DNA from: a virus
Lineage: Duplodnaviria; Caudoviricetes
Reading direction: 5' to 3' (one strand)
DNA length: 49,190 bases
Virus record (IMG/VR): IMGVR_UViG_3300020514_000004
Location: 1 to 49,190 of that record
The notes beneath the pieces were generated by a model. The model was not told where the DNA came from. It saw only the letters and a program-made list of their open reading frames with translations, and made no database searches. The position numbers and the translations under genes are program-made. How positions within the stretch are numbered: position 1 is the stretch's first letter; each line of letters begins with the position of its first letter. Below are positions 1 through 49,190 of the stretch, piece by piece.

Positions 1-278
1 CTGGTGGGGTCGGGCAGCTCGTGCGGCGGGACGGGGATGATGCCGTGCTCGAGCAGTCGCTTGCGGGAGGTGACCGTGGGCGCGTGCTCGAAGTCGTAGA
101 TCATCGTCCACTGGAACTCGTCCATCTTGTCGGCGTTGTTCTCGCGCATGAGCTTGGCGATGGCTGCCTTGCGGTCCTTGAAGTACTGCTCGATGTCGCG
201 GACGGCGTCGCGCTTGATGGAGGCGGACGGGTGCGGGTCGGTGTAGGGACGGGTGCGGGTGGCGAGCGTGGTGTTCAT
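1..278 (-). CDS. Hypothetical protein, runs off the window start (MNTTLATRTRPYTDPHPSASIKRDAVRDIEQYFKDRK...)
   Basis: ATG at 278 just after the stop of the upstream gene at 283; open to base 1; not in the ORF track. Confidence 0.65.
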   Translation of the reverse strand, partial: MNTTLATRTRPYTDPHPSASIKRDAVRDIEQYFKDRKAAIAKLMRENNADKMDEFQWTMIYDFEHAPTVTSRKRLLEHGIIPVPPHELPDPT

Positions 279-282
279 GGCG

Positions 283-510
283 TTACTCGGTGGGCGATGC
301 GATCTCGGAACGGAGCAGGTCGATCTGGGCCTGGAGGTTGTTGATGTGGTTGACGGCGAGGGTCAGCCGCAGGTGCAGGGAGACGGCGTCCTTGGCGAGG
401 TTGTAGATCATGTCCTGGTTGAGCGGGTAGCCGTTGATGTGGAACTTGTTGGTGGAGTCCACGAAGTTGCGAGCGGAGGCGAGGACGTCGGGGTTGGTGG
501 GGTCACGCAT
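283..510 (-). CDS. Hypothetical protein with C-terminal coiled coil
   Basis: Track ORF 283..549; likely start MRDPTNP at 510, overlapping the upstream stop. Confidence 0.65.
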   Translation of the reverse strand: MRDPTNPDVLASARNFVDSTNKFHINGYPLNQDMIYNLAKDAVSLHLRLTLAVNHINNLQAQIDLLRSEIASPTE

Positions 511-1291
511 GGGTGGGCTCCAGGTTGGTGATGTAGGAAGTGGCGGCACGAAGACGGTCGGGCGTGGTGAGTGCGTTGAGGGATCGCTTCTCGACCTCGG
601 TCACGGCTTGGAGGACGAGTCCCTTGGTGAGGCCGGCCGAGCGGGAGGGGAACAGGCCGCCCGGGCCGGTGGGGTTGGCGAGTTCGCGGCGCAGGTGCGG
701 GACGTTCTGCCACAGGACTGCGCCGTTGTCGGCGAGAGCGCAGGCGGTGGTGTCGATGAACTCGCGGGTGTCGGGCAGGGGCTGGGTGTCGAGGTCGTTG
801 AGGGCGGCGACGAATGTGCGGGCCTGGGTGATGAAGTTCACCATGCACGAGGCGATGGTTGAGTCGTAGGAGGAGGCGAGGCCCGGCGTGTTCTTGCGGT
901 GGAACGAGATGGCTTCGCCGCCTGACATGGCGAGGTTGTCGCAGACGAACGTGCGGAATGACATGGTGCCTGATTGGGCGAAGGACTTGTCCCAGGACGA
1001 GCGGAAGCCGAAGCCGACGAGGCCGTCGTTGGTGGGGGCCGGGATGAGGGGGTGCTCGAACTCGATGAGGCCGAAGAACTTGTCGGCACCGGTCTTGCCG
1101 TGCTTGACGGCGAGGGATTCGGTGCGGAGTGTTGCGCCCATCAGGGTGAGGGCCGAGCGGATGGCGGTGACGAAGGAGGAGTGCGGGATGGGGTGCCACG
1201 AGTCGGTGGGCTCGGGCGGGCAGATCATGGCGAGGTCATCGAAGGCGATGTCCTGTGCGCCGCAGTGGAGATAGAGGCGATTGGTTGACAT
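503..1291 (-). CDS. DUF932-family phage/plasmid protein
   Basis: PEPTDSWHPIPH, RSSWDKSFA, FVCDNLAMSG and RKNT motifs resemble DUF932; GAGGA RBS. Confidence 0.75.
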   Translation of the reverse strand: MSTNRLYLHCGAQDIAFDDLAMICPPEPTDSWHPIPHSSFVTAIRSALTLMGATLRTESLAVKHGKTGADKFFGLIEFEHPLIPAPTNDGLVGFGFRSSWDKSFAQSGTMSFRTFVCDNLAMSGGEAISFHRKNTPGLASSYDSTIASCMVNFITQARTFVAALNDLDTQPLPDTREFIDTTACALADNGAVLWQNVPHLRRELANPTGPGGLFPSRSAGLTKGLVLQAVTEVEKRSLNALTTPDRLRAATSYITNLEPTHA

Positions 1292-1294
1292 GGT

Positions 1295-2326: not shown

Positions 2327-2926
2327 TCAGCGACGCACGGCCTTGAGCTTGCGCTTGGGCTGGCGTTCCATGTCGCAGTCATCGCCGGTGAACGAGGCGG
2401 CGGGGTCGACCTCGTTGGCAGCCGAGAGGTAGGACGGCACGGCTGCGGAGCCGCGGACGTTGGCGAACTCGCGGTCACCGCTGGTCTTCCACTCGATGTT
2501 GGGAGCGACGCGGGAGCCGGCGAGGGCGGATGCGTACTCGGCGATGGAGCGGAAGGACGAGATGACGCCGGGCTTGTCGGCGGATGCGAGGGCGTCGCGG
2601 AGCTGGTTGCAGAGGGTGCGGACCGAGTCACGGGACAGGCCGGTGCACTCGATGAGGTCGCAGAACACGTTGGCACCCACGGCGGAGAAGGCGGTGCCGT
2701 TGGTGAAGGAGATGAGGTCCGTGACGGTCAGGCGGGGCATGCCCTGGGCCTGGTCGACGGCGAGCGTGAGGCGGAAGCGCAGGCAGAACTCGCCGTTCTT
2801 GTCCGTGGTCTGGGCGTCGACCTTCGTGACGGTCGCGGAGTAGCGGCCGTTGGGGTAGTCGGTGGACGAGGCGTAGCGGAAGGCGGACAGGTCAGCGGAC
2901 GCGAGCGAATCGAACTTGATGTCCAT
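2327..2926 (-). CDS. Putative ssDNA-binding protein, DUF669-like
   Basis: DYPNGRYSATVTKVD start, beta-rich core, REFANV and acidic stretch near the C-terminus; ATG at 2926 after TACGGAG. Confidence 0.5.
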   Translation of the reverse strand: MDIKFDSLASADLSAFRYASSTDYPNGRYSATVTKVDAQTTDKNGEFCLRFRLTLAVDQAQGMPRLTVTDLISFTNGTAFSAVGANVFCDLIECTGLSRDSVRTLCNQLRDALASADKPGVISSFRSIAEYASALAGSRVAPNIEWKTSGDREFANVRGSAAVPSYLSAANEVDPAASFTGDDCDMERQPKRKLKAVRR

Positions 2927-2974
2927 TGTGGACTCCGTAAGAAAGAGAAAGAAAGAAGAAAGAAACGAGTGCAA

Positions 2975-3015
2975 CCCCCGTGCGGGGGGTGCGCAAGCAC
3001 TCCCCCCGCACGGGG
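2975..3015 (-). promoter_or_regulatory. Hairpin (GCAA loop on +) followed leftward by a long (T/C) tract
   Basis: CCCCGTGCGGGGGGTGC-GCAA-GCACTCCCCCCGCACGGGG; minus strand continues TTTCTTTCTTCTTTCTTTCTCTTTC. Confidence 0.7.
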
Positions 3016-3024
3016 TGTAGGAGA

Positions 3025-3159
3025 TCAGTGGGAAATGCAAGAGGGACAGAACCGGAGGCATTCGATGTTGCCATCGGACTCGGTGTAACGGCAGGTGGTG
3101 AGGAGTTCGGGGTCGAACTGCTGCTCGCAGCCGTCGCAGGTCTCGGTGTCGGGGTCCAT
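3025..3159 (-). CDS. Small zinc-ribbon-like protein, 44 aa
   Basis: MDPDTETCDGC...FCPSCISH has two CxxC pairs; AAGGA RBS; coupled to upstream stop. Confidence 0.6.
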   Translation of the reverse strand: MDPDTETCDGCEQQFDPELLTTCRYTESDGNIECLRFCPSCISH

Positions 3160-3161
3160 GG

Positions 3162-3488
3162 TCAGTCCTTGAGGTGGAGGATGTCGCGGAGCAGGCGGCG
3201 GTAGACGCCTCGCTCGGTGATGACGGTGTCGATCTCGTCCTTGAGCCGGCGCTCCTCGATGCGCGAGGTCTGCCGCATGTTGTCCATCATGCTGCGCAGG
3301 TTCTTGATCTTCGACTCGTCTTCCTCGTGGATCTTGGTGAGTTGGGAGACCTGCTCGTTGAGTTCGGCGATCCGGTCGTTGAGCTGGCGGATGGTGTGGT
3401 GCGCGTCGCGGAGCGGCTTGTTGGGGTCCGCGTGCAGGGCGTAGGTGGACGGGGTCGGCTTGATGTTGTTCTTCCAGTCGTCGGTCAT
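3162..3488 (-). CDS. Coiled-coil hypothetical protein
   Basis: Start MTDDWKNN after GAGGA; heptad-rich. Confidence 0.7.
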   Translation of the reverse strand: MTDDWKNNIKPTPSTYALHADPNKPLRDAHHTIRQLNDRIAELNEQVSQLTKIHEEDESKIKNLRSMMDNMRQTSRIEERRLKDEIDTVITERGVYRRLLRDILHLKD

Positions 3489-4589: not shown

Positions 4590-4710
4590 CTGATAATATG
4601 GGAAAGGGTCAATCCCTCTCAAAATTCCCTACCAAACCCCTAACCCGTACCAGTAATACCAACCTTTCTTTCCTTCGTAGAGATAGTTATATATAAAGGA
4701 TAGAAACCAC
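4590..4710. other. AT-rich non-coding control region (candidate origin, genome end or promoter region)
   Basis: Strongly AT-rich intergenic tract (GATAATAT, AGATAGTTATATATAAAGGATAGAAA) at a G/C skew flip. Confidence 0.5.
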
Positions 4711-4801
4711 CAGGTCACTCCGGTACGCCCCCTTGGCCCCATAAGCAAACACCCCCACCACCCGAAGGTGGCAGGGGCGCATGGAGAGAAGAAGCTCGTT
4801 A

Positions 4802-5061: not shown

Positions 5062-6477
5062 CTAGTGCTCGTCATCGTACTCCTTTCGCAGGCTCATCCC
5101 AGCAATTCCTCGCTCATGTCCCTGCGATTCGCTCAGCCGCACCTGCCTCAGGTCCCAGCTGCTGCCCTGCGACACCTTCATCGGCAGCATGTTGCTCGCG
5201 ACGTGCATTCGGATCTTGTTGGCCTTCGTCCACGCATCCCACTGCGCCCGCAGAATCCCGTTGCTCACGAACCCGTCCTTCCTCGCCACGAACCGCGCCT
5301 CCAGGAACGCATCGAACGGGTTGTTCTGCAGGTGGTACAGGTGCACCGCACGCTCAGCAGCCTTCGGAATCGGCCACCGATCCGCCGCCTTGCTGTTCTC
5401 CAGCCTGTGCGCGCCCGCCACGCACCACGCCGCAATCCCCTCCAGCTCCTTCCCCAGCTCTGCCTCCAAGTCTAGGTCCTCCCTGCCCTCAAAGCTGACC
5501 TCGAACGGCAGCACCAGCATCTTCCCGCTCAGGCCCCTGCCCTTGTTGGGCAGCACCGGGATCTCGTTGCTCTGCATGATCACCGCCGCGTTCACGATCA
5601 CGTTCCGCTGCTGCCGCATGTACTTCGCGTCCACCGTCATCGGGTCACGGCCCACGATGTTCTTGACCACCCGGCACACCCTCTCCCCGCTCTTCCCGTC
5701 CAACTCACTCACCTCGTTGATGCTCAGCACCTTCGTCCGCTCCAGCCCGTCCATGCCGAAGCCCCCCGCCAGGTCCTCCAGGCTCGCGCCCATGAACGCA
5801 TCCCGGCCCACCAACTTCCGAATAGTGGAACTTATAGTTCCCTTTCCTCCCCTGATCTTGCCGTACATCAGCATCCACCTGGCGTACTTCCGGTTGCCCA
5901 TCAGGCAGTACCCCATCCACCGCGCCAGCAACTCGGCCCACACGGGATCGCCCTCACCCCACTCAGCAACCGCCTGCTGCCATCTGCTGGTGGGGGCATC
6001 CGGCTTGTAGTCCACCGGCAGGATTGCCGTGTCGAACCACCGCGCAGGCCTCGGGCACGTCTCCAGCGTCTTGACGTTTACCAGCCGATCCCGGAAAGCA
6101 ACAGTCTCCCCAGGCGGGAACCGCTCATCCGGCGCGTCAAGCCACAGCGGAACCTCCTCAGCCTCGATCCGCACCAACGCCTCCAGCGCCCGCACGACCC
6201 CGTCGACCTTCTGCTTGTCAGGGCTGTATCGCACCAGCACGGGGCCGTTCTGCGTCTGCCGCTCGTATACCGCGTCTTCCAGCACAAGCCACACACGGTC
6301 CCGGATGCGCTCCTCGTCAAGCACACGCCATGTGCCGCCCTCCCAGCTCCACCAGTCATTCTTCCATCTCCATAGTCCGCGCATGCCACCCGGCGCGGTA
6401 AACTGCCTCTGTATGATTCGCCGAGCCACCTTGACGGGCTCAAGCGACTGCAACGGGTTCTGCAACCAGTCAGTCAT
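5062..6477 (-). CDS. D5/P4-type SF3 DNA helicase without a recognisable primase domain
   Basis: Walker A YGKIRGGKGT, Walker B VLSINE, motif C IMQSNEIP, D5_N-like VAFRDRLVNVKT; AAGGAG RBS. Confidence 0.88.
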   Translation of the reverse strand: MTDWLQNPLQSLEPVKVARRIIQRQFTAPGGMRGLWRWKNDWWSWEGGTWRVLDEERIRDRVWLVLEDAVYERQTQNGPVLVRYSPDKQKVDGVVRALEALVRIEAEEVPLWLDAPDERFPPGETVAFRDRLVNVKTLETCPRPARWFDTAILPVDYKPDAPTSRWQQAVAEWGEGDPVWAELLARWMGYCLMGNRKYARWMLMYGKIRGGKGTISSTIRKLVGRDAFMGASLEDLAGGFGMDGLERTKVLSINEVSELDGKSGERVCRVVKNIVGRDPMTVDAKYMRQQRNVIVNAAVIMQSNEIPVLPNKGRGLSGKMLVLPFEVSFEGREDLDLEAELGKELEGIAAWCVAGAHRLENSKAADRWPIPKAAERAVHLYHLQNNPFDAFLEARFVARKDGFVSNGILRAQWDAWTKANKIRMHVASNMLPMKVSQGSSWDLRQVRLSESQGHERGIAGMSLRKEYDDEH

Positions 6478-7369: not shown

Positions 7370-7882
7370 TTGAGTGAGGCAGGCGAGCAGCATGTCATCT
7401 CCTTCGGCAGGGGCGTGCGCCTCATGTCGGAGGAGTACTACATCCGCGAGCTGCGGCCATACGGCATCGACAAGACCCGTGCCTTCCGCGCACTGTGCCG
7501 GGCCATCTGCTGCCCCATCATCGTGCTCGGCCGGGTGGGGTTCGTCGATCCCGCCACCTTCCAGCTCTGCATGAAGAACCTGTCGATGCCCGGGCAGAAG
7601 GACTTCATCGGCCCCAACTCCTACATGAAGGTCTACCGCAAGGCCCGCAAGCAGTACCGGAACAGCGTGGACCCCAAGGAGATCTACGCGAACTGGAAGC
7701 AGGTCGTGCGTGCCGTGGCCGACAGCCGGCGCATCAGGGGCCTCTCAATCCAGGACACGGATCGCGTGGCAATCCGAACTGCCGCGGAGGAACTGACGAG
7801 GTTTGTGCTTAGAATGATCCCGTCCCACGAACAGGGAATGAGCAATGGCAACCCGACCTCTGCGACCGATCAAGGTTCCTGA
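7370..7882 (+). CDS. Hypothetical protein
   Basis: 170 aa ORF starting 2 nt after the previous stop. Confidence 0.75.
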   Translation: MSEAGEQHVISFGRGVRLMSEEYYIRELRPYGIDKTRAFRALCRAICCPIIVLGRVGFVDPATFQLCMKNLSMPGQKDFIGPNSYMKVYRKARKQYRNSVDPKEIYANWKQVVRAVADSRRIRGLSIQDTDRVAIRTAAEELTRFVLRMIPSHEQGMSNGNPTSATDQGS

Positions 7883-9293: not shown

Positions 9294-9670
9294 AGAGCCA
9301 GCGTGCAAGCAGCGGCGACGAGGTGATCCGTTCGTACTTCGGGCTCGATGGCGTCGCGCTCGCGCTGAAGTCCAGCAATTGGGAGGTGCGGGAGGAGGTG
9401 GAGCGGCTGGTCGAGTTCAGCCGTGACCCCGATCCCAAGGTCGCAATGGCGGCGATGAAGCAGTTGCGTGGCGTGGTGCGCGAGACCGCGGAGATCAACG
9501 GTATCATTGCCAGCCAGAACGCCGAGATCACGCACGTCGAGGGCAACCAGACGGTGAAGATCAGCGCGACGAGCAAGCTCGTCCAGTCCCTCCAGGAAAG
9601 CAAGTCCCATGTCCAAGTCCCCGAAAGCCTCCCCTTCGCAGCCCAGTATCTCCCCGCCCGCGATTCCTGA
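9290..9670 (+). CDS. Hypothetical protein, candidate terminase small subunit
   Basis: 126 aa, helical then beta tail, two genes upstream of TerL; function from position only. Confidence 0.45.
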   Translation: MKSQRASSGDEVIRSYFGLDGVALALKSSNWEVREEVERLVEFSRDPDPKVAMAAMKQLRGVVRETAEINGIIASQNAEITHVEGNQTVKISATSKLVQSLQESKSHVQVPESLPFAAQYLPARDS

Positions 9671-9944
9671 CCACCTGCTCCCCGTGTGGGAGACGCTGGA
9701 CAGACTTGACTCCTTGGATTGCTGGCGGCTCGGTGCCCCGATCCTCCTGGACCTCGGCATCGTTGAGCCCACCGTGTTCCGCGACGCTGAGCCCCCGCAG
9801 ATCGGCGAGATGTTCCGCAGCCGGATCGAGCCCACGGAGGAGTGGTTCCGCATCGCCAGCGACCTGGGCCGATCCATCAAGGACCACAAGCTGCTGACCA
9901 TTGCGCTCCTGCGCGTCGCTGCCGTGAGGCTGGTGGGGTCTTGA
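9609..9944 (+). CDS. Hypothetical protein
   Basis: 111 aa ORF whose TGA overlaps the probable TTG start of TerL. Confidence 0.6.
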   Translation: MSKSPKASPSQPSISPPAIPDHLLPVWETLDRLDSLDCWRLGAPILLDLGIVEPTVFRDAEPPQIGEMFRSRIEPTEEWFRIASDLGRSIKDHKLLTIALLRVAAVRLVGS

Positions 9945-11881
9945 CGCTACTGATCCCGAGGGGCGGCAACGACTTCTATCCCCTGCCGGCGGACTACCTC
10001 ACGCTCACGCCCGAGGGCCAGCGTCTTGCGCGCGTGAACGCGTGCAAGCAGTGGCAGCTCGGCGGGGACCCCAACGACCGGGCGCATGCGCTCGCGGCAA
10101 GCATCAACTTTTTTGATCGTTATTACCTGTACCCGGATTGGGACGAGGACTTCAATCCCTACTTCTACGACGATGACCCCATCGAGTCGCCGCTCGGGCA
10201 CTTCGCCATCTACCGGCTGTGGGCCCTCGCAAGCAAGAGCGTGGCAATCGCACCACGCGGTTTCGCGAAGAGCAACTGTTTCCGAAAGTCGGCACTCCTG
10301 CAGATGGTTAGCCGCCCGGCGTACTCCTTCATCTACGCCACGAGCAGCGGAGACAACGCGGAGCAGACAAGCCAGGTCCTGAAGACTCAGTTCCTCGGCA
10401 ACCAGCGGCTCGCGGACGATTGGGGTCCCGAGTTCCCCGATGGCCGCATCACGCCCAAGCGCGGCGAGCGGTCGTTCGGCGTTGAGATGATGTACCTGAA
10501 CAACGGCAGCTGGTTCCGGGCCATCAGCGCGGAGAGCCGCCAGCGCGGCGGACGCCCGCGCGTGTACGCGCTGGATGACCCGGAGTACGACCCGAAGGCC
10601 AGCACGAGCATGAGCATCCTCCGCTCGTACATGGAGCGTCTGCTGTTCAAGGTGGTCATTCCCATGGTCACCAGGCGTGACACCAGCGTCCGGTGGCTGG
10701 CGACGTTCGTGAGCCGGCGTCACTACGCGTGGCACGCGATGGCGACCGAGCCGGGACCGCAGGGTCCGGTGGCCCGCGACCCTCGCTTCGACCAGTGGGC
10801 ACGCCTGGTGCTCAAGGCCGAGTACGAGGAAGGTGGGGTCCGCAAGTCCTGCTGGCCAGGCATGTGGCCGCTTGACCGGAAGTCCAAGGAGGAGGACCCG
10901 AAGCTGAAGGGGCTGGTCAGCCTGGAGGAGATCCGGGAGATGATCGGCAGCCACAACTACATGGCCGAGTACCTGGCGCAGCCGGGCGAGGCCGAGGACC
11001 TGCACTTCGGCGAGGTCACGCGGGAGAAGCACGGCTGGTGGCTGGAGAACCCTGACCCCCTTGTGGACTCGGACCCGAAGAACAGCGAGGCGACGGTGTG
11101 CTGGCGCGGGAAGGCGGGGACCGAGGAGCGGATGCCCATGGCCTCGTTCCTGAAGGACCGGGTGCGGATGTTCATCACGGTCGACACCAGCTACACGGCA
11201 ACAAGCGACAGCGACTACAAGGTCTGCACCCTGATGGGCTACGACCCGGTGGACGCGTGCCTGTTCGTGCTGGACACCTGGGGCATGCAGTGCCGGGAGC
11301 AGCGGCTGATCGAGGCGGCGTTCGCCATGGCCGGCAGGTGGGGTTGCCCGGCGATCCACCCGGAGGTGGTCCGTCAGTCGTATGGCCTGTACTCGGCGAT
11401 GGAGTCCATGGTCCGGCAGCGTGCGGCTGAGGTGACGGGCGAGACCCCGCCCCGCATCGTCCCCCTGCGCGTGGGCACGCTGGACAAGACGGCGAAGATC
11501 AACGCCCTGCACTACCGGTTCGAGCACGGCCTCATCAAGTTCCCCGTCTGGCGGCGGGGCCAGTTGCCGTGGCGGCTCCTGTTTGACCAGATCGAGCAGT
11601 TCAACCCGGACGCGGAGAGCGGTGGCCTGCAGCACGACGACTTCATCGACACCGTGGCCATGAGCATGTTCGTGGTCAGGGGACGCCTGGACCGCCAGGT
11701 GGCGCACGACGGGCCCGCAGCCCTGGATTTCGACCAGATGCTTGCGGACGGCAGCATCCACGACCAGCTGGTGGGGGGCATGCGCAACGTGGAAGCGATG
11801 CCTTTCGGCTCGGTGGGGGTGGACAGCATTATCAACAGCATGGAGAGAAATGACAATGCCTCACGAGGAACGCGCGTCTAA
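9941..11881 (+). CDS. terL: Terminase large subunit
   Basis: Walker A APRGFAKS, Walker B RGGRPRVYALDDPE, nuclease FITVD and HDDFIDTVAM; start probably TTG 9941 (track ORF begins 9842). Confidence 0.93.
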   Translation: MTLLIPRGGNDFYPLPADYLTLTPEGQRLARVNACKQWQLGGDPNDRAHALAASINFFDRYYLYPDWDEDFNPYFYDDDPIESPLGHFAIYRLWALASKSVAIAPRGFAKSNCFRKSALLQMVSRPAYSFIYATSSGDNAEQTSQVLKTQFLGNQRLADDWGPEFPDGRITPKRGERSFGVEMMYLNNGSWFRAISAESRQRGGRPRVYALDDPEYDPKASTSMSILRSYMERLLFKVVIPMVTRRDTSVRWLATFVSRRHYAWHAMATEPGPQGPVARDPRFDQWARLVLKAEYEEGGVRKSCWPGMWPLDRKSKEEDPKLKGLVSLEEIREMIGSHNYMAEYLAQPGEAEDLHFGEVTREKHGWWLENPDPLVDSDPKNSEATVCWRGKAGTEERMPMASFLKDRVRMFITVDTSYTATSDSDYKVCTLMGYDPVDACLFVLDTWGMQCREQRLIEAAFAMAGRWGCPAIHPEVVRQSYGLYSAMESMVRQRAAEVTGETPPRIVPLRVGTLDKTAKINALHYRFEHGLIKFPVWRRGQLPWRLLFDQIEQFNPDAESGGLQHDDFIDTVAMSMFVVRGRLDRQVAHDGPAALDFDQMLADGSIHDQLVGGMRNVEAMPFGSVGVDSIINSMERNDNASRGTRV

Positions 11882-36979: not shown

Positions 36980-37486
36980 TCAGTTGCCGTAGTTGTTGTC
37001 CCCGATGAACGTCGGGGCACGAAACCCACCCGGCAGGATGGTGGGCATGTTGTCGTTGAACGCCTCGAGGGGGATCTCCCGGGCAGCCGGTCCGTCCCAC
37101 TGCACCGGTGCGTCCGGGTCCCCCGGCTCCTCGTCCTGCACGATCTGCTGCCTCATCGGCTGGGTGGGGGCAGCAGGCATGGGCCCGATGAAGTCCGGGG
37201 CAGGCCGGGGCATCTCCCGCCAGCCGGGGATGCTGACCTCGATGCGCTTCTTGAAGTTGATGCCCAGGTCCTCGCACCACCCGCTGAAGGTGGAGTAGGA
37301 AGGACGCACCTCGTGCATCTGGCAGAACGCCCGGTGGAGCTGCTGCCTGTTCTCGATGTCCGGCACGTCCCGCACGGTGCGGGCAATGCGTGGGGCGATG
37401 ACAAGACGCAGGCACTCCATCCACATGGCCGGTCCAAGGACCGCTCGTGTGGCTTCCTGGCTGGTGGGGTTAGCCGCTTCCTCCAT
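36980..37486 (-). CDS. Hypothetical protein
   Basis: 168 aa with GGAG RBS. Confidence 0.65.
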   Translation of the reverse strand: MEEAANPTSQEATRAVLGPAMWMECLRLVIAPRIARTVRDVPDIENRQQLHRAFCQMHEVRPSYSTFSGWCEDLGINFKKRIEVSIPGWREMPRPAPDFIGPMPAAPTQPMRQQIVQDEEPGDPDAPVQWDGPAAREIPLEAFNDNMPTILPGGFRAPTFIGDNNYGN

Positions 37487-38693
37487 GGTCGATCTCCGTG
37501 TGGCCGTCTCTGTCTCTCTGCAGGAACCCTTCAGCCAGGATCAACTCGGGCCACTTGCCAGGCTCAACCATGTGGAACGGGAGGTAGGGCGACGGAGTAC
37601 CGTGCTGGACTACCGGATCACCGATCTCGAATTCGCTGGGCTGGGACGTGCGGCTCGTGTACTTCCGGATGAAGGACAGGCGATCATGGTACTCGCACTT
37701 GAGATCTTCTGCAAGAAGAAGTTCCGCGGAAGTGGTGGAAATCGCAACGCACGGATCGGTCAGCCGCTCGGGCTCGAAGTGGCTGTACTCTCCGCGTCCC
37801 ATGTACCAGTCGAGGCAACGCTGTTCGTAGAGGTACGGGTCCGGCTCGCCCGTGTAGATGCGCTCGTTGCGCGGCTCGCCCTTGCGGGGTCCGCTCTTGA
37901 ACGGCGATTCGTCCAGCGTGAACGGACGGTCCTTCATCCCGAACTCAATGCTGGGCTTGCGCACCGCGACGTGCAGGACGCCGGCAACCGTGTCGCCGCC
38001 ATACTGAATGGCCATTTCTGGCTGCGCTGCCATGGCATCCGAAAGGGTGTAGTAGTAGTGCTGAGTCTGGAACTCGAGTGGGCAGGTTTGGAGTCGGGCA
38101 TTCGTGGACATGGACGTGGTCTTGAAGTCCACGATCCACAACTTGCCGGCCTTGTCTCGCACGATGCAATCAGGCTGGATGAGGCAGTCTGCGTACAGGA
38201 TCTCGGGCTCCTGCTCCACCACGGTCCAGTCCTCCGCGAACCGCTGGGCCAGGGTCTTGCCGCTGCCGTCCGGTACCTGCATGGCTGCGTTGAACCACGC
38301 GATGCTGGTTCGGGCGTCGATTTCCTCACGGGCCACCATCTCCCGCACCTTCTCCGGGCTTGCACCCATCTGCTTGGCGACCTCCCGCAGCTCTTCGCAT
38401 CGGGCCACGATGGCCTGCTCCAACGCCAGTGCCCGGTCGGTGGGGTCATCGAGAATGCAGGCGAACGCAAGGTGGACCCAGCTGCCCCGGGTCAGGGCCT
38501 TGCTGTACTGGAACGCCTTGACCAGCCCCAGCTTGCGGGACAGGTAGTAGGTGCGGGGGCAGGACCGCAGCAGGCGGTAGTCGGACGAACGGATGTGCGG
38601 CCTGCGGCTGAAGATGCCGTGGGCCTCAAGCCAACTGCGGACATCATCGTTGGTGCTGGTGGGGTACTTGACGGGTGTGGTTGGTGGGGGCAT
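37470..38693 (-). CDS. PD-(D/E)XK exonuclease (RecB/AddB/Cas4-like)
   Basis: CPRTYY, RGSWVH, IQPDCI...IVDFKTT, QTQHYY; AAGGAG RBS. Confidence 0.85.
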   Translation of the reverse strand: MPPPTTPVKYPTSTNDDVRSWLEAHGIFSRRPHIRSSDYRLLRSCPRTYYLSRKLGLVKAFQYSKALTRGSWVHLAFACILDDPTDRALALEQAIVARCEELREVAKQMGASPEKVREMVAREEIDARTSIAWFNAAMQVPDGSGKTLAQRFAEDWTVVEQEPEILYADCLIQPDCIVRDKAGKLWIVDFKTTSMSTNARLQTCPLEFQTQHYYYTLSDAMAAQPEMAIQYGGDTVAGVLHVAVRKPSIEFGMKDRPFTLDESPFKSGPRKGEPRNERIYTGEPDPYLYEQRCLDWYMGRGEYSHFEPERLTDPCVAISTTSAELLLAEDLKCEYHDRLSFIRKYTSRTSQPSEFEIGDPVVQHGTPSPYLPFHMVEPGKWPELILAEGFLQRDRDGHTEIDHGGSG

Positions 38694-40926: not shown

Positions 40927-43182
40927 TTATGGAGTAATTGCGCCGTAAGTCTTCCACGTACCCGGGCTACCCGCTGCTGTGCACACCGCACCCAAGAATC
41001 CTCCAGCGGTAGGTGTGGTGTATTCAATCCTGTCTCCGATTGCCCAGCGGCCAGTATTGGCACCAGGAACTGCATTCAACTCGTACACCACAATTTTGTC
41101 TCCCTGCTTGCTTGCAATGTAACCGCACTTAAACCCACCAGGAGAGCCGTCTCCGTACGAAATGCTGGTCTTGCTTGTCACATTTTCAAACACGTTGTCG
41201 CAGATGGGAACAGTGGAATCATTGCTGGTGTTCTTGGAGATTCCGAATCCAACATTGCAGTCTTTGATCACATTGTTTGAGTAGTTGACTGTGAAGAACC
41301 TGGTCGTGTCAGCAAAGTACTGATACAAGCTGACGGCAACGTGGAAATTTTCAAAGACATTTCCAAATACCTGCGTGTATAGCGGCCGAGACACGCGAAC
41401 ACCAGCATTGAGTTCAGTAACAGCAGCTCCTGGACTTCCTCCTCCGGAAGTCCGATCATGGCCCTTGAAGTAATTGTTGCGCACAAACGACATAACGGTT
41501 CCCACCTGTGAATCAAGAAGCACGGACGGGAAGTTGTAATTTGTGCGCTTAAACACGTTGTCTTCAATAATCAAACCGCCAACATCACTTCTTCCTGAAG
41601 ATGCTGCATACCAAATGTCATGCTTGGTTGTTCCAGAAATGACGTTGCCCTTGATTACGCACTTTCCTGCGCGACTTGAAATCATGAAGCCATAACCAGC
41701 GCTTTCGATGATCGTGTTGTTTGAGAACGTTGGGCCGTCAACAGGCGTAGTGGTGGTAGCAATGAAGTTGATTCCACCCGAAGTAGGGTGGTTGTTCTTG
41801 TAGATCAAGTTGTTGGTGATCAACGTCTTGGGGCTTTGGCTGCTAGTCCAGATCCCTCCAGTTAGTCCGGAAGTGTCAGCTGTTGCCTGGCTTACCTTAG
41901 AAATTATGTTGTTGGCACAGACAATCGGGCCACTGGTTTCCAGAGTCCCCCCCTGAAGGTAGATACCGGTAAGCCGTGTGTTTCTGCAAACGTTATTGGA
42001 GACAACAGCACGAGGCCCATCAACAGTTTGATCCCCATACCCAACAGAAATTGCGTGTCGACGAACCCCGCCATTTGCTGCTTCTGCCCACGTCCCACCA
42101 ACAGTGCACGTAGTCGCATCTAGAGTCACAACAACATTGCCATTGACAACAATGTCTGCGTTTCCTCCGTAAGCGTCAACCCAAATCCCAAGACAGTTGT
42201 TGCTCAAACTAAAGTTGTTCTCAACAACAATTCGGTTGATGCCCAGAGTGTTGGTAAGGTCATTGCCAACAACAACAATGTCTCCAGAACTAGAGGTTGC
42301 GGGATCTGCATCCCAAGTAGAGCCATAGACAATGTTGTCTTTGATGCTTACGTCTCGACAAGCATTGATCTGAACCCCGCATTCTGTCCTAGATAGCTTG
42401 ATCCAGTTTGCAACAATGGCAACATTGTTCTTGCCTGCTGCATAAACTGCGTTCTGGTTTGCATAGTCGTAACCAGCAGCAACATTGGTTGGCATCTCAA
42501 GATTGAGATTGCTGATTACGGTGTCATGCCCCATCTCAAAGATGTTTTTCTTGAGTGTAATTTGCTTGATAAGTGAGCCAAATCCTTGGCCTACCACAGA
42601 AACACCATTTGGAATGGTCAGCTTGTCGGTGATCCGATAGAAAGAAGATGTTGCAGGAATAAGAACAGAAGAGTCTGTATTTCCTGCAGAAGTAAGAGCT
42701 GCCTGGATTGCGGCGGTGTCGTCAGTCACCCCGTCGCCGACAGCGCCGAAGTCCTTGACGCTCACCTGCTCGGCAAGCTTGGACGAGACCTCGCGAACCG
42801 TGCTTGATCCAGGTGCCAGGTAGTTGACCTGGCTGGTGCTTGACTTGGTGCTGGACAGAAGAGCCCAGACATTCTGGCCCAACGTCGCGGCTTCGGTCGC
42901 GATGAACTGACCGCCACCGTCAGTGGACTTGATGACAGTGCCCGTTGAACTCGGGACAAGGAAGTCGCCGGCAGCGATGGTGCCACCTGCACGCAGGAGC
43001 CGGGTGCTGTTCTCGTCGGTCTGAAGTTCAATGACTTCACCCGACGCCTTCTGCGAGTAGGTGGTCACACCGAACACGACATCGGAGCTGGAGGTGGTGA
43101 CTCCGACTTGGTCCGACCCCACCAGCTTGACGCAGCTGTAGCCGGGGATCGTGCCTGACGCGGTGAGTTGAAGTTCGTTCAT
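40927..43182 (-). CDS. Spike/fibre protein with right-handed beta-helix (pectate lyase-like) domain
   Basis: VSVKDFGAVGDGVTDDTAAIQAA, repeated IxNN parallel-beta motifs, C-terminal GSPGTWKTYG. Confidence 0.85.
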   Translation of the reverse strand: MNELQLTASGTIPGYSCVKLVGSDQVGVTTSSSDVVFGVTTYSQKASGEVIELQTDENSTRLLRAGGTIAAGDFLVPSSTGTVIKSTDGGGQFIATEAATLGQNVWALLSSTKSSTSQVNYLAPGSSTVREVSSKLAEQVSVKDFGAVGDGVTDDTAAIQAALTSAGNTDSSVLIPATSSFYRITDKLTIPNGVSVVGQGFGSLIKQITLKKNIFEMGHDTVISNLNLEMPTNVAAGYDYANQNAVYAAGKNNVAIVANWIKLSRTECGVQINACRDVSIKDNIVYGSTWDADPATSSSGDIVVVGNDLTNTLGINRIVVENNFSLSNNCLGIWVDAYGGNADIVVNGNVVVTLDATTCTVGGTWAEAANGGVRRHAISVGYGDQTVDGPRAVVSNNVCRNTRLTGIYLQGGTLETSGPIVCANNIISKVSQATADTSGLTGGIWTSSQSPKTLITNNLIYKNNHPTSGGINFIATTTTPVDGPTFSNNTIIESAGYGFMISSRAGKCVIKGNVISGTTKHDIWYAASSGRSDVGGLIIEDNVFKRTNYNFPSVLLDSQVGTVMSFVRNNYFKGHDRTSGGGSPGAAVTELNAGVRVSRPLYTQVFGNVFENFHVAVSLYQYFADTTRFFTVNYSNNVIKDCNVGFGISKNTSNDSTVPICDNVFENVTSKTSISYGDGSPGGFKCGYIASKQGDKIVVYELNAVPGANTGRWAIGDRIEYTTPTAGGFLGAVCTAAGSPGTWKTYGAITP

Positions 43183-43192
43183 GGGAGTTCTT

Positions 43193-44743
43193 TTACTTGA
43201 GCAGGTTTTGAATCATGTATCCAGCAAGAACCATGTATCCGTTCGACGAAGAAGTTCCGGTTGCCTGGAAACCTGCACCCCCACCAGGGGGTGGATTTGT
43301 CACGCTTGCAACAACACTCTGGTTCCAAGTCGTAACCACCGCCGTAATTGGTGCAGCCCTGAGATGCGCCGCATAAGGTGCAAACGGAGAGGATCCGGCA
43401 GTGCCCGTTTCATAGATCGAATACAGGTTGGAATCACTGAGCTGTGCAGCTGTCCTGTAATCTTCAAAGTCAACGAACGTCACGTTCGTCTTCCCGGAAA
43501 CCCAAGCCTTTGCCTGGTCTGCAAACAACTTCTTCTGTGTCGCCCAACTGGCACCACCGGCCATCGACGCAGGAGTGGGGTGAGTAGCCGCAATCAGGAA
43601 ACAAAGATCCGATTCCGGGAAGGACCAATGGCTCCATGCGGATCGGAAGGTCGAGACAATCGAGTCAAGGCTGGTGGGGTAACTCGATGATGTTGCACCA
43701 TCATTGATGCCGCTCTGAAGGAAGATCATGACGCGACCGGAACCACCTGCTTCTATCTGACGTTCCCGAAGTTCCTTGACGTAAAACCTGAGGGTGTTCA
43801 GGTTGTTCGACATGTCGGTCGCAAGCTGAGCAGTCGTTCTTCCGCCGTAGTAAGTGAGGTTGGAGACCGAGTATCCCTTCTTGCTCTGGAACATCAACGA
43901 GTGCCAGAAGAAAGCGCAGGGACTTACTGCGTAATCTGCAACAGTGCCACTTGCATACCCGTCCACGTTGCATCCAAACATCACGGATCGGTCAGAGACT
44001 TCGGGGGAGTTGAAGTTCAACTTGGCTGCCGCAGTTCCGGCATTGACTCCAAGAGTTCCCGTGTTCGTGGTGATTGCGCTCGAAGACCGGGCAACAACGG
44101 TGTTGACCCCGCGCACTACCTGCAACTTGAACTGACCAGACCCGCTCGTGAACGTTCCGTACACGACTCGGTACTGAAGGGCGTTTGATCCCGTTCCATC
44201 CTTGATTGCAAAGGTAGTTCCTGCTCCAACGGAAATGGCGGGACCATTGCCTGCAGATGTGGCGGTTCCGCCTCGAACGAAAAGCCCGTCGTATCCAAAC
44301 GAATATGGCTTGAGAAGCGAGAAGTTGTTGCCGGTCAGGAAGCCCTGGATTGCCAGGGCATCTGTGTCGCCTGCAGTCGCTGCGGTTGCAAGGTTCGTGA
44401 TGAGTCCCGTTTGCCCAGCGCCGCCACCGCTGTTTCCGGTGCCGCCGAAGCGGTAAAGGCAGTAGTCAGTAAACGTCCTGTTGTTTCCAACTCCATCGTT
44501 TGCCATGATGGAAAGAGGAGTTGCGTATTCGGAAGCGCCTGCATACCCAAGAGCGCATCGGATGCCATCGTTGTACCCAAAGAGGTCGTACCAAGTGTTG
44601 CTGTCACCGATGGTGACAATGTCCAGGGAGTTTGATCCCGACACAACATCTTTGATAAATTGAGAAGCCCTGGAACTCCCGTAGATTCCTGCTGCTTGGG
44701 GATAAGAGAACAGAGAACGGGTGCGGTTGCGGTATTCGTACAT
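43193..44743 (-). CDS. SGNH/GDSL-hydrolase-like virion protein
   Basis: IVTIGDSN (block I), GGRT (II), GIND (III), late His; start MYEYRNR at 44743. Confidence 0.7.
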   Translation of the reverse strand: MYEYRNRTRSLFSYPQAAGIYGSSRASQFIKDVVSGSNSLDIVTIGDSNTWYDLFGYNDGIRCALGYAGASEYATPLSIMANDGVGNNRTFTDYCLYRFGGTGNSGGGAGQTGLITNLATAATAGDTDALAIQGFLTGNNFSLLKPYSFGYDGLFVRGGTATSAGNGPAISVGAGTTFAIKDGTGSNALQYRVVYGTFTSGSGQFKLQVVRGVNTVVARSSSAITTNTGTLGVNAGTAAAKLNFNSPEVSDRSVMFGCNVDGYASGTVADYAVSPCAFFWHSLMFQSKKGYSVSNLTYYGGRTTAQLATDMSNNLNTLRFYVKELRERQIEAGGSGRVMIFLQSGINDGATSSSYPTSLDSIVSTFRSAWSHWSFPESDLCFLIAATHPTPASMAGGASWATQKKLFADQAKAWVSGKTNVTFVDFEDYRTAAQLSDSNLYSIYETGTAGSSPFAPYAAHLRAAPITAVVTTWNQSVVASVTNPPPGGGAGFQATGTSSSNGYMVLAGYMIQNLLK

Positions 44744-44745
44744 GG

Positions 44746-45228
44746 TCAGAGCCCCGAGCTGAGGACATGGATCGTGGTGCCCGTGGCATCCACAGCGCAG
44801 ACCTCGAGAGTATGGCAACCGACCGTGTCGATCATCACGAACCCGCCGTTGCCCGTACCAGACACGCCCGGGTAGAACTTGGCGTCTCCCGTAAGCAGAG
44901 CCATGCTTGCGACTTCGTAGAGGGTGACTCCCTCGGGGGAAGTCTGCGAGGTGGCGGACATGGTTGTGCTGAAGGAGCACAGGAGCTGCGGCACGTACGT
45001 CATGGTGTCGGACCAGAACGACCAGCCGAACACGTAGATGGTGGGTGCCGTGGTCCCGGTGGACAGCAGCTTGAGCTTGATGTAGTTGAGGCTGGAGCCG
45101 AAGACCGTCGAGTTACTTCCGGTCGGCCGGGTCGTGGTCGTCACCCGGTTCGGGGTTCCCGACGTCGCTGACGTGAACGTGTTGCGGCTGAAGTTCTTGA
45201 CGTCCGTGGTGAGGGTGACCTGTGCCAT
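44746..45228 (-). CDS. Putative virion structural protein
   Basis: Thr/Ser-rich, 160 aa, AGGAG RBS. Confidence 0.6.
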   Translation of the reverse strand: MAQVTLTTDVKNFSRNTFTSATSGTPNRVTTTTRPTGSNSTVFGSSLNYIKLKLLSTGTTAPTIYVFGWSFWSDTMTYVPQLLCSFSTTMSATSQTSPEGVTLYEVASMALLTGDAKFYPGVSGTGNGGFVMIDTVGCHTLEVCAVDATGTTIHVLSSGL

Positions 45229-46534: not shown

Positions 46535-46839
46535 TGGATCTCCTCCGCTGCTTCGCGCAGCTTGTCGTTGATGACGCCGTCGAGGACGTCGAGTGCCTTG
46601 ACGATGGTGAGGGGCATGTTGTCGCCGTAGTGCCAGGTGATCTCGTTGTCGTCGCTGTCGGAATACGAGACGTGGATGGGCTCGGCTTCCTTGATCTCCA
46701 CGATCCGGGCACGCTGGCCGGGTGCGGCGGTGGTGTGGGTGATGGAGATGGTGCAGTCGAAGGTGATGTCCAGGCTGACGATGTCGGCCTCGACCCAGAT
46801 GGTGATGTCCTTGCGGTGGTTGATGGTCTTGTCAGTCAT
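46531..46839 (-). CDS. Hypothetical protein
   Basis: 102 aa with AAGGAG RBS. Confidence 0.7.
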   Translation of the reverse strand: MTDKTINHRKDITIWVEADIVSLDITFDCTISITHTTAAPGQRARIVEIKEAEPIHVSYSDSDDNEITWHYGDNMPLTIVKALDVLDGVINDKLREAAEEIQ

Positions 46840-47143
46840 CGTCGTCTCCTTGTCCGAATGAGATCTCCTCTGCCTGCGGGCTGAAGCGGATGCGCCATGC
46901 CTCCCACTTCAGGTCGAATGCTGCTGGGTCCCCCACCTGCCGAAGGTAGCCGTAGTCCTTGGCCCAATGGTTGAAGAGGATGATGTCCGCCAGGTGCAGG
47001 CGGTTGAGAGGGTCGGCCGATGCTGCCGAGAGGTGTGCCTTGTCGGAGAGCACGGCATCGAGGAACCCGCCCGGTGGCGTGCCGTTGCGGTAGTGGCGGT
47101 AGAGGGAATTGAATACGACGGGTGGTATGGAGATGCCTGACAT
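46832..47143 (-). CDS. Hypothetical phage protein (PPGGFLDAVL...ADPLN)
   Basis: Start MSGISIPP 2 nt after the polymerase stop. Confidence 0.65.
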   Translation of the reverse strand: MSGISIPPVVFNSLYRHYRNGTPPGGFLDAVLSDKAHLSAASADPLNRLHLADIILFNHWAKDYGYLRQVGDPAAFDLKWEAWRIRFSPQAEEISFGQGDDDD

Positions 47144-47145
47144 GT

Positions 47146-49190
47146 TCACTCGTAGATGAGGGGTGCGTGATGTCCCGAACGCTTGCACAACTGATGCCAA
47201 TACCCGGCGGTGCCCACGAACTCGACGGCCGCCCACATCAGGTCCGCCGCCTGCTTCTCCGTGCCGGGCGGGCAGTCGAAGTACAGGGCGTCGTAGACCT
47301 GGAGGAACAGCTGCGGCTGCTTGTGGCTGGTGGGGGATGTGATCGGGCCGAGTGCCCGATGGATGAAGTTCTGGATGGCGAGCATGACGTTGCCGGCGGT
47401 TGCCTGCACGGGGAAGTTGCAGACTTCGGAGATCATGGACTTGCCGCCACGGGCGAGGACCTGCTTCAGTTCACGGCGGGTGTTCCACGCACGCTGGTCC
47501 AGCCGGAAGCTGGTGAACGTGCGGGTGTGCCCGGTGTACGGCAGTTCGATGTAGCCCTTGGCCTCAGCCTCACGGCAGAGGGAGTACTGCCACCCCACCA
47601 GGCCGGGACGCTGCTCGTAGCGGGACGCCACGATCTGGTCGAAGAAGGTGAGGGGATAGAGCGTGCCGGACATGTCGAGCACGCTGCGCTGCAGGCGGGC
47701 CGACGATGCGCCGAACAGGTCGGCGAAGTTCACGGTCTTGCCGATCTGACGGAGGGCCTTGAAGTCCGGTCGGTCCTTGGAGTCCTGCCCGAAGATGGCG
47801 AGGGTGCGCTGGGTGTGCAGGTCAACGCCGTCGTTGAAGGCGGCGAGCAGGGTGGGCTCGCCCGACAGGATGGCTGCGACGCGCAGTTCGATCTGGCTCA
47901 GGTCGAACGAGACGATGCTGCCGCCGGGGTAGCGGCTGGCCTCGCAGTCCTTGATGACGGCGGGGAATGTCTGGGCTGCGGGGTTCTTGCAGGTGATGCG
48001 GGCCTGGATGGTGCCGCCTTCAGAGCCCGAGTCCTTGGGGATCGAGGGGACGGTGTACCAGGTGGGGTAGGCGATGCCGATGGTGGGGGAATCTGGCCGG
48101 CTGAGAAGGACAGATGAACGGTCGGTCGGCTTCGTGCGACGGTGACGCAAGAGCGGATACGTGTAGGAAGACACCAACTTCTGGGCCGTGCTGTGCTTGT
48201 CGGCACACTCGAAGATGGTGCGCGCTGGATGCGAGTCGGGCAGGTGGCTGGCGATGAGCCGGCGGTTCTCGCTGGACCACGAGAGTTCCTTCGCTTTCTC
48301 GGTGTAGGTGAGGAGTGGGTGGGAAAGGAAGTCGGGGTTGGTGGGGAGGATGTCCTCGATGCAGCGGGCCATGAACTCCCGCTGGGACTGGACGCTTCCT
48401 TCGCCCTCGATGAGTACCCCACCAGCAGCGGCGCAGTTGGTTGCGGTCTCTGCTTGGTCAAGAAGTTCCCGCTCAAGGGACATGAGGCGGGGCAGGCTGA
48501 AGGGGATGCCGGCTTCGGACATGCGGATGGTGGACCACAGGGTCTCGCTGAAGTGGTGGACGCTGTACTCCCCCAACTTGTCGGTGCCGGGGTAGTCCTG
48601 CTTGATGCGGCCGGCGAGGTGCGCGACGGCGAGCATGGTGTTGTGCGTGTCCTGCGCGTTGTACGCGTGCAGGTTGGGGCAGGTGGGGGACGGGAACCGG
48701 CGACCGTCCTTGAGGGTGGCGTCGTCCCGGTAGGAGTGGGTGCCGAGGACGGGGCCGAGTGACTTGAGGCTGCGCTCGGGTCGGAGTTCGGAGTGCAGGA
48801 AGTTGACAACGGACAGGTCGATGAGGGTGTGCCGTCCGTTGAGGGCGAGTGCGATGGCGGGGCTGAAGGCACGCAGCCAGAGGATGTCGAACGGCAGGTT
48901 CATGCCGACGATGGTGTGCGCGTGACGGAGCCACGCGACGAGGGTTGCGTGGGTGGTGGGGTCGGTCAGGTTGAGCGTGAAGGTGGGACCGGGCACGAGT
49001 GCGGCCACGCCATCGAGGTTCCACGAGCCGGGCACGTTGGCTGGTGGGGGTTCGGCTGCGGCGACGGTGATGGCGCAGGTGAGGACGAGGTCCTGGCGGG
49101 CAACGCCGTCCGTGGCGATGGCCCGTGCAGGGTGAAAGACTGTCTGGGCAGGGAGCATGGTGCCGCGTCCGTTGGTGGCAGCTGCTCCGT
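47146..49190 (-). CDS. polA: Family A DNA polymerase with 3'-5' exonuclease; N-terminus probably beyond the window end
   Basis: ExoII GMNLPFD, ExoIII YNAQD, motif A DLSQIELR, motif B RQIGKTVNF, motif C QVYD; frame open to the window edge and ExoI absent. Confidence 0.92.
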   Translation of the reverse strand, partial: GAAATNGRGTMLPAQTVFHPARAIATDGVARQDLVLTCAITVAAAEPPPANVPGSWNLDGVAALVPGPTFTLNLTDPTTHATLVAWLRHAHTIVGMNLPFDILWLRAFSPAIALALNGRHTLIDLSVVNFLHSELRPERSLKSLGPVLGTHSYRDDATLKDGRRFPSPTCPNLHAYNAQDTHNTMLAVAHLAGRIKQDYPGTDKLGEYSVHHFSETLWSTIRMSEAGIPFSLPRLMSLERELLDQAETATNCAAAGGVLIEGEGSVQSQREFMARCIEDILPTNPDFLSHPLLTYTEKAKELSWSSENRRLIASHLPDSHPARTIFECADKHSTAQKLVSSYTYPLLRHRRTKPTDRSSVLLSRPDSPTIGIAYPTWYTVPSIPKDSGSEGGTIQARITCKNPAAQTFPAVIKDCEASRYPGGSIVSFDLSQIELRVAAILSGEPTLLAAFNDGVDLHTQRTLAIFGQDSKDRPDFKALRQIGKTVNFADLFGASSARLQRSVLDMSGTLYPLTFFDQIVASRYEQRPGLVGWQYSLCREAEAKGYIELPYTGHTRTFTSFRLDQRAWNTRRELKQVLARGGKSMISEVCNFPVQATAGNVMLAIQNFIHRALGPITSPTSHKQPQLFLQVYDALYFDCPPGTEKQAADLMWAAVEFVGTAGYWHQLCKRSGHHAPLIYE

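Follow-up and report, generated by a model that had tools for sequence, protein, structure and literature searches.

A G-rich ten-base word, GCTGGTGGGG, recurs along both strands of a phage genome in IMG/VR (record IMGVR_UViG_3300020514_000004; Caudoviricetes). We analyzed all 49,190 nucleotides of this record (the window); the record is 94% complete, and about 3.7 kb of the genome is missing between the ends of the window. The word is a selected DNA-level signal, independent of any one peptide and of the direction of transcription. We tentatively read it as a start site for a primase, whether the host's or an unrecognized one of the phage.

Enrichment of the word

The copies lie at exactly the coordinates given in an earlier note on this DNA, and the window opens with CTGGTGGGG, as that note had remarked.

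2301 to 49049, + strand: 25 exact copies of GCTGGTGGGG, mean gap about 2.0 kb, shortest gap 564, coefficient of variation (CV) of the gaps 0.52
2277 to 48426, - strand: 10 exact copies of GCTGGTGGGG

This amounts to 711 copies per Mb, or about one per 2.0 kb on the + strand. The expectation over both strands is 0.33 copies from base composition (the GC content is 63%, not the roughly 65% first estimated) and 4.3 copies from a 5th-order Markov model. The core, GGTGGGG, occurs 60 times on the + strand and 26 times on the - strand. Within genes, we counted 28 copies, while 150 within-gene synonymous shuffles gave 2.39 +/- 1.39 (at most 8) and genome-wide shuffles gave 1.61. The enrichment thus survives the shuffle and Markov checks that had been proposed for it.

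With the gene set we used, the coding copies are read as LVG (11), AGG (8), antisense PTS (8), and WWG (1), in line with the frames noted earlier. The copy at 37460 adds one PTS if its gene takes a longer start, and PPA appears once, at 49040, when polA is taken from a longer start. About 5–6 copies are intergenic, so a single peptide motif does not explain the word, and the copies share no flanking sequence. An assembly artefact had been named as a way in which the signal might dissolve. Over positions 9500–26500, contigs (not raw reads) from four runs in four independent lake or freshwater studies carry at least eight of the copies (9929, 11767, 14957, 18332, 20234, 21400, 25103, and 26046) in pieces with no differences.

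The selected unit is longer than Chi

The word contains the E. coli Chi octamer, GCTGGTGG. Of the 40 Chi octamers in the window, 36 are followed by G and 35 by GG, which bears out the suggestion that most of them belong to a longer and distinct signal. The proposed link to Chi itself fails: Chi octamers with A, C, or T as the next base are no more frequent than expected (4 copies versus 3.7–4.4), and the non-Chi variants GTTGGTGGGG, GCAGGTGGGG, and GATGGTGGGG are enriched 13- to 45-fold. We also counted single substitutions in four close genomes, which hold 123 exact copies. Positions 4–10 (GGTGGGG) are intolerant, with 0–6 copies per variant, near expectation, and the T at position 6 is almost invariant (three substitutions). 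Positions 2–3 are tolerant (GTT 36, GCA 23, and GAT 20, versus about 1–2 expected); overall, positions 1–3 bear change and positions 9–10 do not. The selected unit is therefore G-N-N-GGTGGGG-K, with G(C/T)T preferred as the prefix and G or T as the suffix. Because Chi without a following G shows no excess and the core is intolerant, the Chi octamer is an incidental substring, and we rejected E. coli-type Chi as the selected unit. We also rejected a G-quadruplex reading, as the window has just seven canonical patterns.

Copies are evenly spaced on each strand

The + copies are spaced more evenly than chance allows: none of 2000 simulations gave a CV as low as theirs. Evenness extends to nine distant genomes, each scored with its own word as chosen by over-representation (Fisher p = 7e-5 on the + strand and 1e-3 on the - strand; G011 and G017 are not even on the + strand). 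Because the CV for each strand is mostly at or below that of the pooled strands, the spacing acts per strand. Of 45 comparable 7-mers, the three most even are sub-words of the motif.

The earlier note had also described a bias to the + strand in both arms of the window. The bias itself holds (15:4 and 10:6; 210:106 across the genomes compared, equal in late and early arms), but in the window control G-rich words lean to the + strand just as much (216:119, p = 0.46). The two behave differently around the predicted replication origin described below. Control G-words flip there (65:283 to 312:70), whereas the motif does not (14:9, 24:8). Relative to the control words, the motif leans to the + strand just right of the origin (14:9 versus 65:283; odds ratio 6.8, p = 2e-5) and to the - strand left of it (odds ratio 0.47, p = 0.004).

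Two copies form a conspicuous pair:

2272 to 2314, no strand: divergent inverted word pair (2277 on -, 2301 on +), intergenic, 12–14 bp stem, DNA fold z = -4.2

The 24-bp offset of the pair is the same in G003, G004, and G019, with a variant in G002, and G009 has a divergent pair of its own spelling at an equal distance from the helicase. The pair was not found in G013, G015, or G016. Directly behind it, at 1594–2250 on the - strand, lies a conserved open reading frame (ORF) that is missing from the gene list; the stem is just upstream of its ribosome-binding site.

Silent sites and placement in genes

Conservation at synonymous positions had been suggested as a check. Of 25 orthologous windows with identical amino acids in G002, G003, and G005, 23 retain the word, versus 11,867 of 28,489 (42%) for other 10-mers. 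Word positions are common to genomes within a close clade and almost never to distant clades, so density matters and position does not. Copies concentrate at gene ends (49% lie within 75 nt, versus 24%; p = 0.001). Three genes stand out in the numbers of copies that they carry:

15021 to 16559, + strand: likely major capsid protein, from its place after portal and scaffold
35463 to 35984, - strand: likely single-stranded DNA-binding protein (SSB), a core gene adjoining Sak4; suggested by position, with no family match
28541 to 28873, + strand: 110-aa core gene of unassigned function, in 13 of 13 genomes

The capsid and SSB genes have no copies in any of 13 genomes, where 16.3 and 6.1 would be expected; this accords with how rarely both use GGG codons (the capsid gene uses GGG for 1 of 53 glycines). 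Because these genes lack the word and gene ends are favored, we conclude that carrying the word has a cost and that copies sit where this cost is low. The 110-aa gene is dense in copies (18 versus 3.6 expected, 13 genomes with clades pooled). A low-GC island (40927–44980, 53–55% GC) with a pectate-lyase-like beta-helix gene still holds exact copies at 43117 and 43670. Behind the capsid gene, at 16637–18368, are a ferritin-like DUF5856 gene and five small proteins of strongly basic character, DUF6321 and DUF5872 among them, which are likely DNA-condensing core proteins.

Related phages use clade-specific spellings

We fetched relatives with the large terminase subunit:

9941 to 11881, + strand: terminase large subunit (TerL)

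The 10-mer is present in 31 of 31 loci whose TerL is at least 82% identical (0.51 per kb) and in 0 of 34 loci at 59% or less. It is also present in 8 of 8 loci whose polA is just 32–35% identical (0.45 per kb), while G016, with a polA at 49%, spells the word otherwise; we therefore rejected polA as the reader. (These sets of loci overlap and are not independent.) Among 12 whole related records, the spelling is GGTGGG(G) in G002, G003, G005, and G006; (G)TGGGGGGA in G009, G013, G015, and G016; AGTGGGG(G) in G011, G012, and G014; and GACTGGAAGGGG in G017. These dialects are clade-specific and centered on (G)TGGGG, and all except the main word of G017 retain TG plus a G-run. In a quick tree of structural genes, dialects track the phylogeny across 41–63% GC. 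Gene by gene, none follows dialect more closely than the backbone does (partial rho -0.35 to 0.23).

Two relatives from different clades, G011 (L147–L149) and G015 (L162–L164), have a second over-represented word, GCTGCGG(TG), with GCTGCGG counts of 12+/2- and 16+/7-. This second word may be a genuine Chi-like signal of the host that accompanies the G-run word. G011 also has a cassette (L147:3994–6392) of a likely ubiquitin-like small protein, a JAB-domain protein, and a ThiF protein. In another lineage (L126, L128–L134, and G006), the family A polymerase is replaced or fast-evolving (26–35% identity) and the backbone is otherwise close.

The phage is uncultured and comes from a lake; its family is widespread in lake and ocean. 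No cultured relative was found by megablast of positions 1–24000 or by tblastn of 20581–22113 and of the capsid gene, and among 50,697 phage records TerL had matches at 23–25% only.

The core of the word in Planctomycetota

A scan of 185,579 genomes with TerL found three loci: two in metagenome-assembled genomes (MAGs) of Planctomycetota, at 28% and 25%, and one at 55% in a MAG titled Myxococcales. One of the Planctomycetota contigs (83 kb) has six more genes of the family, and the 36 ORFs scanned on it are solely phage genes. We did not take the Myxococcales-titled MAG (G021, a 22.8-kb contig) as a host, as GTGGGGG has no polarity there (11:12). A metallophosphoesterase search of 401 Planctomycetota genomes gave no match, the names of cluster members gave no host, and tetranucleotide correlation does not separate the candidates (0.44–0.75 for Planctomycetota, up to 0.63 for controls). 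The host is likely a planctomycete, though unproven.

The earlier note had proposed looking for the same polarized motif in candidate hosts. The full 10-mer is rare there: across the 401 genomes, it reaches at most about 34 per Mb, at least 20-fold below the phage. On the complete chromosome of G412, it is co-oriented (43:8) and not above its reversed control (51 versus 39). In G339, a motif-rich candidate host, 30 of 36 listed sites are concordant per contig (p = 0.04).

The core, in contrast, is strongly polar in several Planctomycetota. We sampled 100–400 kb from eight of these genomes, with five genomes from the phylum of G021 as controls. Ranked by raw skew among about 2,900–3,300 7-mers, GGTGGGG is first in G128 (33:1) and G300 (33:2), second in G240, 10th in G412, and 27th in G103 (where GTGGGGG is fourth). 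The counts in G169 (8:1) and G270 (7:0) are too small for a rank, and the word is not polar in G126. Control ranks are 23, 68, 95, 1036, and 1131, and one control, G447, has GTGGGGC and TGGTGGG in its top three. G240 had been chosen for its excess of the motif and G128 oriented by the motif, so we set these two and G126 aside and oriented the other five genomes by GC skew. These give 84:9 for GGTGGGG, 73:4 for GTGGGGG, 186:68 for GG(A/C)GGGG, and 68:32 for GGGNAGGG, the canonical FtsK-orienting polar sequence (KOPS). The five controls give 129:38 for GGTGGGG and 79:9 for GGGNAGGG.

The host word is enriched on one strand (1.3–3.7x for the core) and depleted on the other. It sits on the G-rich, presumably leading, strand, which is the lagging template. 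Host copies lack the G(C/T)T prefix preference of the phage; among 22 G-rich 7-mers, the top two of the phage fall within the top three of the hosts. The same polar word was found in G103, the one of five candidate genomes with a RecC match, and in four of the five tested genomes, which have none. The word tracks neither the presence nor the absence of RecC and so does not follow the resection system. DnaG was found in all five genomes searched.

Using a dif pattern, we located a shared 28-bp dif-like site (CATAA N6 TTATC) in four Planctomycetota genomes, at L176:5363–5390 (G240:C30), L204:4846–4873 (G300:C1), L297:1500–1527, and L298:1500–1527. In G240 and G300, 22 of 28 positions are identical, and similar sites occur in two of five further genomes. 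Over 160 kb around the site in G240:C30, GTGGGGG is 17:0 to the left and 35:2 to the right. Polarity converges on the dif-like site in G300 also, where one side is seen for 4.9 kb only. The seven genomes with a polar word encode an FtsK-gamma helix of the form GYTRAS, versus GYNRAA in two controls with canonical KOPS; this correlation covers 10 genomes, and the seven may be a single lineage.

A published definition of KOPS (PMC3384302) is a skew of at least 90% and at least one copy per 40 kb around dif. The host word reaches these thresholds at the site in G240:C30, and by this definition GGTGGGG and GTGGGGG appear to behave as KOPS in Planctomycetota, in place of the canonical word, and not as Chi. 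In the open-licence literature, supplements aside, our searches turned up neither this word in phages nor a Planctomycetota KOPS (the supplements of PMC3384302 may list more species). A dif prediction is reported to have failed in one genome of this phylum (PMC3025954).

Replication genes and origin

The phage has these replication and recombination features:

5062 to 6477, - strand: superfamily 3 (SF3) helicase (D5_N, DUF5906, and a C-terminal winged-helix-like part), without a primase domain
47146 to 49158, - strand: family A DNA polymerase, with its start beyond the end of the window (695 aa in L080)
37470 to 38693, - strand: PD-(D/E)XK nuclease, 407 aa, a stand-alone domain
36059 to 36958, - strand: Sak4-like annealase
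4620 to 4735, no strand: predicted replication origin of the SaPI/SCCmec type (Staphylococcus aureus pathogenicity islands and staphylococcal cassette chromosome mec), just downstream of the helicase operon, where GC skew flips

The helicase model is nearest the SaPI5 PriRep5 helicase (TM score 0.65–0.70), and the nuclease fold is nearest, weakly, the AdnA nuclease and the Cas4 family (TM 0.2–0.3). The nuclease, Sak4, and likely SSB are present in 13 of 13 genomes, and the phage also has an ERCC4-like nuclease. The roughly 3.7 kb missing between the window's ends corresponds to L080:5825–9813, which encodes a uracil-DNA glycosylase along with some nine small ORFs.

We found no primase or integrase family in the 62 ORFs of the window or in 97 further ORFs, most of them from five relatives that are complete or nearly so, plus part of a sixth. 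Nor is there a primase domain in the missing 3.7 kb or in the full-length helicases (about 460–515 aa) among the 120 relatives listed.

The predicted origin has an AT-rich core at about 4666–4705 (TATATATA) between inverted GTACC/GGTA(C/T) repeats. Other clades use CCGGGT, CCGCCAG, or TGACCAC as the origin repeat, and none uses the G-run word. We therefore rejected the word as the iteron of the helicase, which likely reads these other sequences. In 7 of 12 genomes, cumulative GC skew peaks 0.4–1.0 kb from the helicase stop, and skew at fourfold sites forms a gradient from the origin (from -0.88 to +0.7 in G017).

Priming sites as the favored reading

We tentatively favor a role for the word as a start site for a primase, with the probability split about evenly between host DnaG and an unrecognized phage factor. 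Our reasons are the per-strand spacing, the invariant T in GTG, the lack of a primase gene, and the fit of orientation relative to the origin. The word would mark where the primase lays primers for the helicase–polymerase replisome. The G-rich strand would be the template, offering 5'-GTG-3' plus a G-run, and the primer would begin opposite the T. Both strands would act as lagging template during concatemer or recombination-dependent replication. More generally, the spacing suggests a reader that moves along a single strand and must meet a site every few kb, whichever way it goes. A gap of about 2 kb is the size of an Okazaki fragment.

The word has two properties of primase sites: a template triplet centered on a pyrimidine (GTG, with its invariant T) and regular, under-dispersed spacing on each strand. 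Around the origin, its orientation relative to control words is that expected for lagging templates. Known primases read T-centered triplets such as CTG, CTA, GTC, and GTG (PMC10250227), and the NrS-1 primase prefers 5'-GTGG (PMC8718748). In SCCmec, the partner of a D5_N-type helicase is an A-family polymerase capable of de novo priming (PMC7581432). If the reader were the host primase, the match to the host's leading-strand word would also be accounted for. Of the options first listed for the signal, priming fits best, and the idea of a word derived from the host is supported, although in Planctomycetota the word behaves as KOPS and not as Chi.

Several observations weigh against priming. Strand use has no absolute flip at the origin (85:47 versus 115:49 in the two halves, p = 0.32), and the relative shift there is also compatible with a uniform target density. 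The sign of GC skew at the origin is opposite to the bacterial convention. For the looser pattern G..GGTGGGG on the + strand of this window, evenness is not significant (CV 0.85, p = 0.17). Primase sites are mostly 3–5 nt, with one of 8 nt, versus 7–10 here (PMC10250227, PMC8718748). No primase was identified, and every reader named here is a candidate; the polymerase seems unlikely to set the specificity. The depletion of the word on the other host strand and the FtsK-gamma helix match fit KOPS better than priming. Priming thus leaves three things without an account: the lack of an absolute flip, the length of the site, and the KOPS-like depletion in hosts.

Alternative readings

The strongest alternative, which we nevertheless consider unlikely, is that the phage copies host KOPS on both strands and so recruits FtsK (for clearing proteins or for moving or resolving concatemers) or titrates it away. 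GGTGGGG is the top-ranked polar 7-mer in G128 and G300, and GGGNAGGG is weak in Planctomycetota (68:32). In G240 and G300 the polar words point from both sides toward a dif-like site, the GYTRAS helix goes with the polar word, the leading G-rich 7-mers of phage and hosts agree, and distant family members lie on contigs of two Planctomycetota MAGs. However, G126 is not polar, a control genome ranks two similar words in its top three, the GYTRAS genomes may be just one lineage, and the host is unproven, with phage genes only on the 83-kb MAG contig. On the phage side, KOPS serves in one orientation alone, but the phage enriches both; it has no dif-like site in 13 genomes (best 14–16 of 22) and no integrase or FtsK-gamma domain (by ORF scans, and by hhalign of seven phage families, with under 2% probability). 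The preference for a G(C/T)T prefix is missing from host copies, and the dialects follow the phage tree over a wide range of GC. Virulent coliphages carry a low density of KOPS (PMC3603311). KOPS mimicry accounts best for the match to the hosts and worst for the layout in the phage. On this reading, which we hold unlikely, a lytic phage family would write Planctomycetota KOPS on both strands at several times the host density and so commandeer or decoy the chromosome pump in bacteria whose division does without FtsZ.

Also rather improbable is that the word is a Chi-like stop, in both orientations, for a host end-resection enzyme of the AddAB or RecBCD type, so that any broken or terminally redundant end would come upon a copy within a few kb and be turned to recombination. 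Even two-way tiling is what random or terminally redundant ends need, and one copy per 2.0 kb on the + strand equals the density of Chi in P1 (one per 1.9 kb; PMC12315714). Some lambdoid phages with a nuclease and annealase but no inhibitor are rich in Chi (PMC12315714), and the 10-mer is co-oriented in G412. Against this, the 10-mer is scarce in Planctomycetota and in G412 does not exceed its reversed control; the polar word occurs with RecC and without it and so does not follow the resection system. In the Chi-rich phages LLS and MD8, which have no Rec module, Chi lies on a single strand close to one end, whereas this phage has a nuclease, Sak4, and a likely SSB and carries the word on both strands.

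We give still less credence to a phage protein that reads the word as a self-mark or organizer, either the PD-(D/E)XK nuclease stopping at it or a small binder attaching to it (candidates are at 7370–7882 and 36980–37486 and among the basic proteins at 17.0–18.4 kb). Dialects that follow the backbone tree, a 10-mer whose density exceeds that in every Planctomycetota genome sampled at least 20-fold, and a nuclease of AdnA/Cas4-like fold present in 13 of 13 genomes would suit such a reader. But no gene's divergence follows dialect past the backbone, the nuclease is a stand-alone domain, and the Atlas look-alikes for two candidates score below 0.9. An organizer of double-stranded DNA would not need per-strand spacing, and the match to the host word would be left to chance.

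Finally, a codon or amino-acid bias, a repeat element, or an assembly error, to which the preference for gene ends and the shunning of the capsid gene might point, is refuted by the shuffles and Markov model, the five reading contexts, the lack of shared flanks, the conservation at silent sites, the presence in 31 of 31 close-relative loci, and the independent contigs.

Significance and comparison with known systems

If the word is a priming site, then a family of lake and ocean phages copies its DNA with a borrowed or unrecognized primase that reads a site of 7–10 bases, and the spellings of its clades are ready-made specificity variants. If KOPS mimicry is true, lytic phages have a hitherto undescribed means of exploiting the host's chromosome motor, and the phage reveals the KOPS and dif of a phylum. 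Either reading yields testable KOPS and dif candidates for Planctomycetota, and the dialect could serve as a marker for predicting hosts.

Over-represented directional words are known in phages, with Chi in P1, LLS, and MD8 as examples (PMC12315714). As here, a short G-rich word is the most over-represented one in the phage, at about one per 2 kb, and lies within genes. This phage differs in that the core is GGTGGGG and not GCTGGTGG, the copies are on both strands, even, and not clustered at an end, a Rec module is present, and the word is at most weakly over-represented in the candidate hosts sampled, which may not include the true one (PMC12315714). In particular, it lacks the combination seen in LLS and MD8 of no Rec module and one-stranded, end-clustered copies.

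In register with KOPS and the SpoIIIE recognition sequence (SRS; GGGNAGGG and GAGNAGGG; PMC3384302, PMC8190038), the dialects read TGGTGGGG, GAGTGGGG, TAGTGGGG, and TGGAAGGG. Like these words (PMC3384302, PMC8190038), the core in Planctomycetota has a polarity above 90% and points from both sides toward a dif-like site. In the phage, A5 of KOPS is G, and the copies do not point one way toward dif: both orientations are enriched, with neither dif nor integrase. KOPS enrichment is reported for prophages and not for virulent phages (PMC3603311).

Primase sites (CTG/CTA/CCC for DnaG, GTC for T7, GTG for pRN1, and GTGG for NrS-1; PMC10250227, PMC8718748) share the T-centered GTG(G) and the per-strand regularity. 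The site here is longer (7 invariant and 10–11 preferred positions), no primase domain was found, and polarity does not switch absolutely. The helicase belongs to the same SF3 superfamily as those of NrS-1 and SaPI5.

In replication machinery, the phage resembles the CCPol-MP-Cch2 system of SCCmec and the Rep/ori system of SaPIs (PMC7581432, 10.64898/2026.10.17.759575). In those systems the iterons are confined to the origin; here the origin repeat, GTACC, is distinct from the genome-wide word, which is not an iteron of this kind. A homologue of MP did not turn up, no search aimed at one having been made. What this phage shares with them is a D5_N helicase without a primase, an A-family polymerase, and, immediately downstream of the helicase gene, an AT-rich origin that carries inverted iterons.

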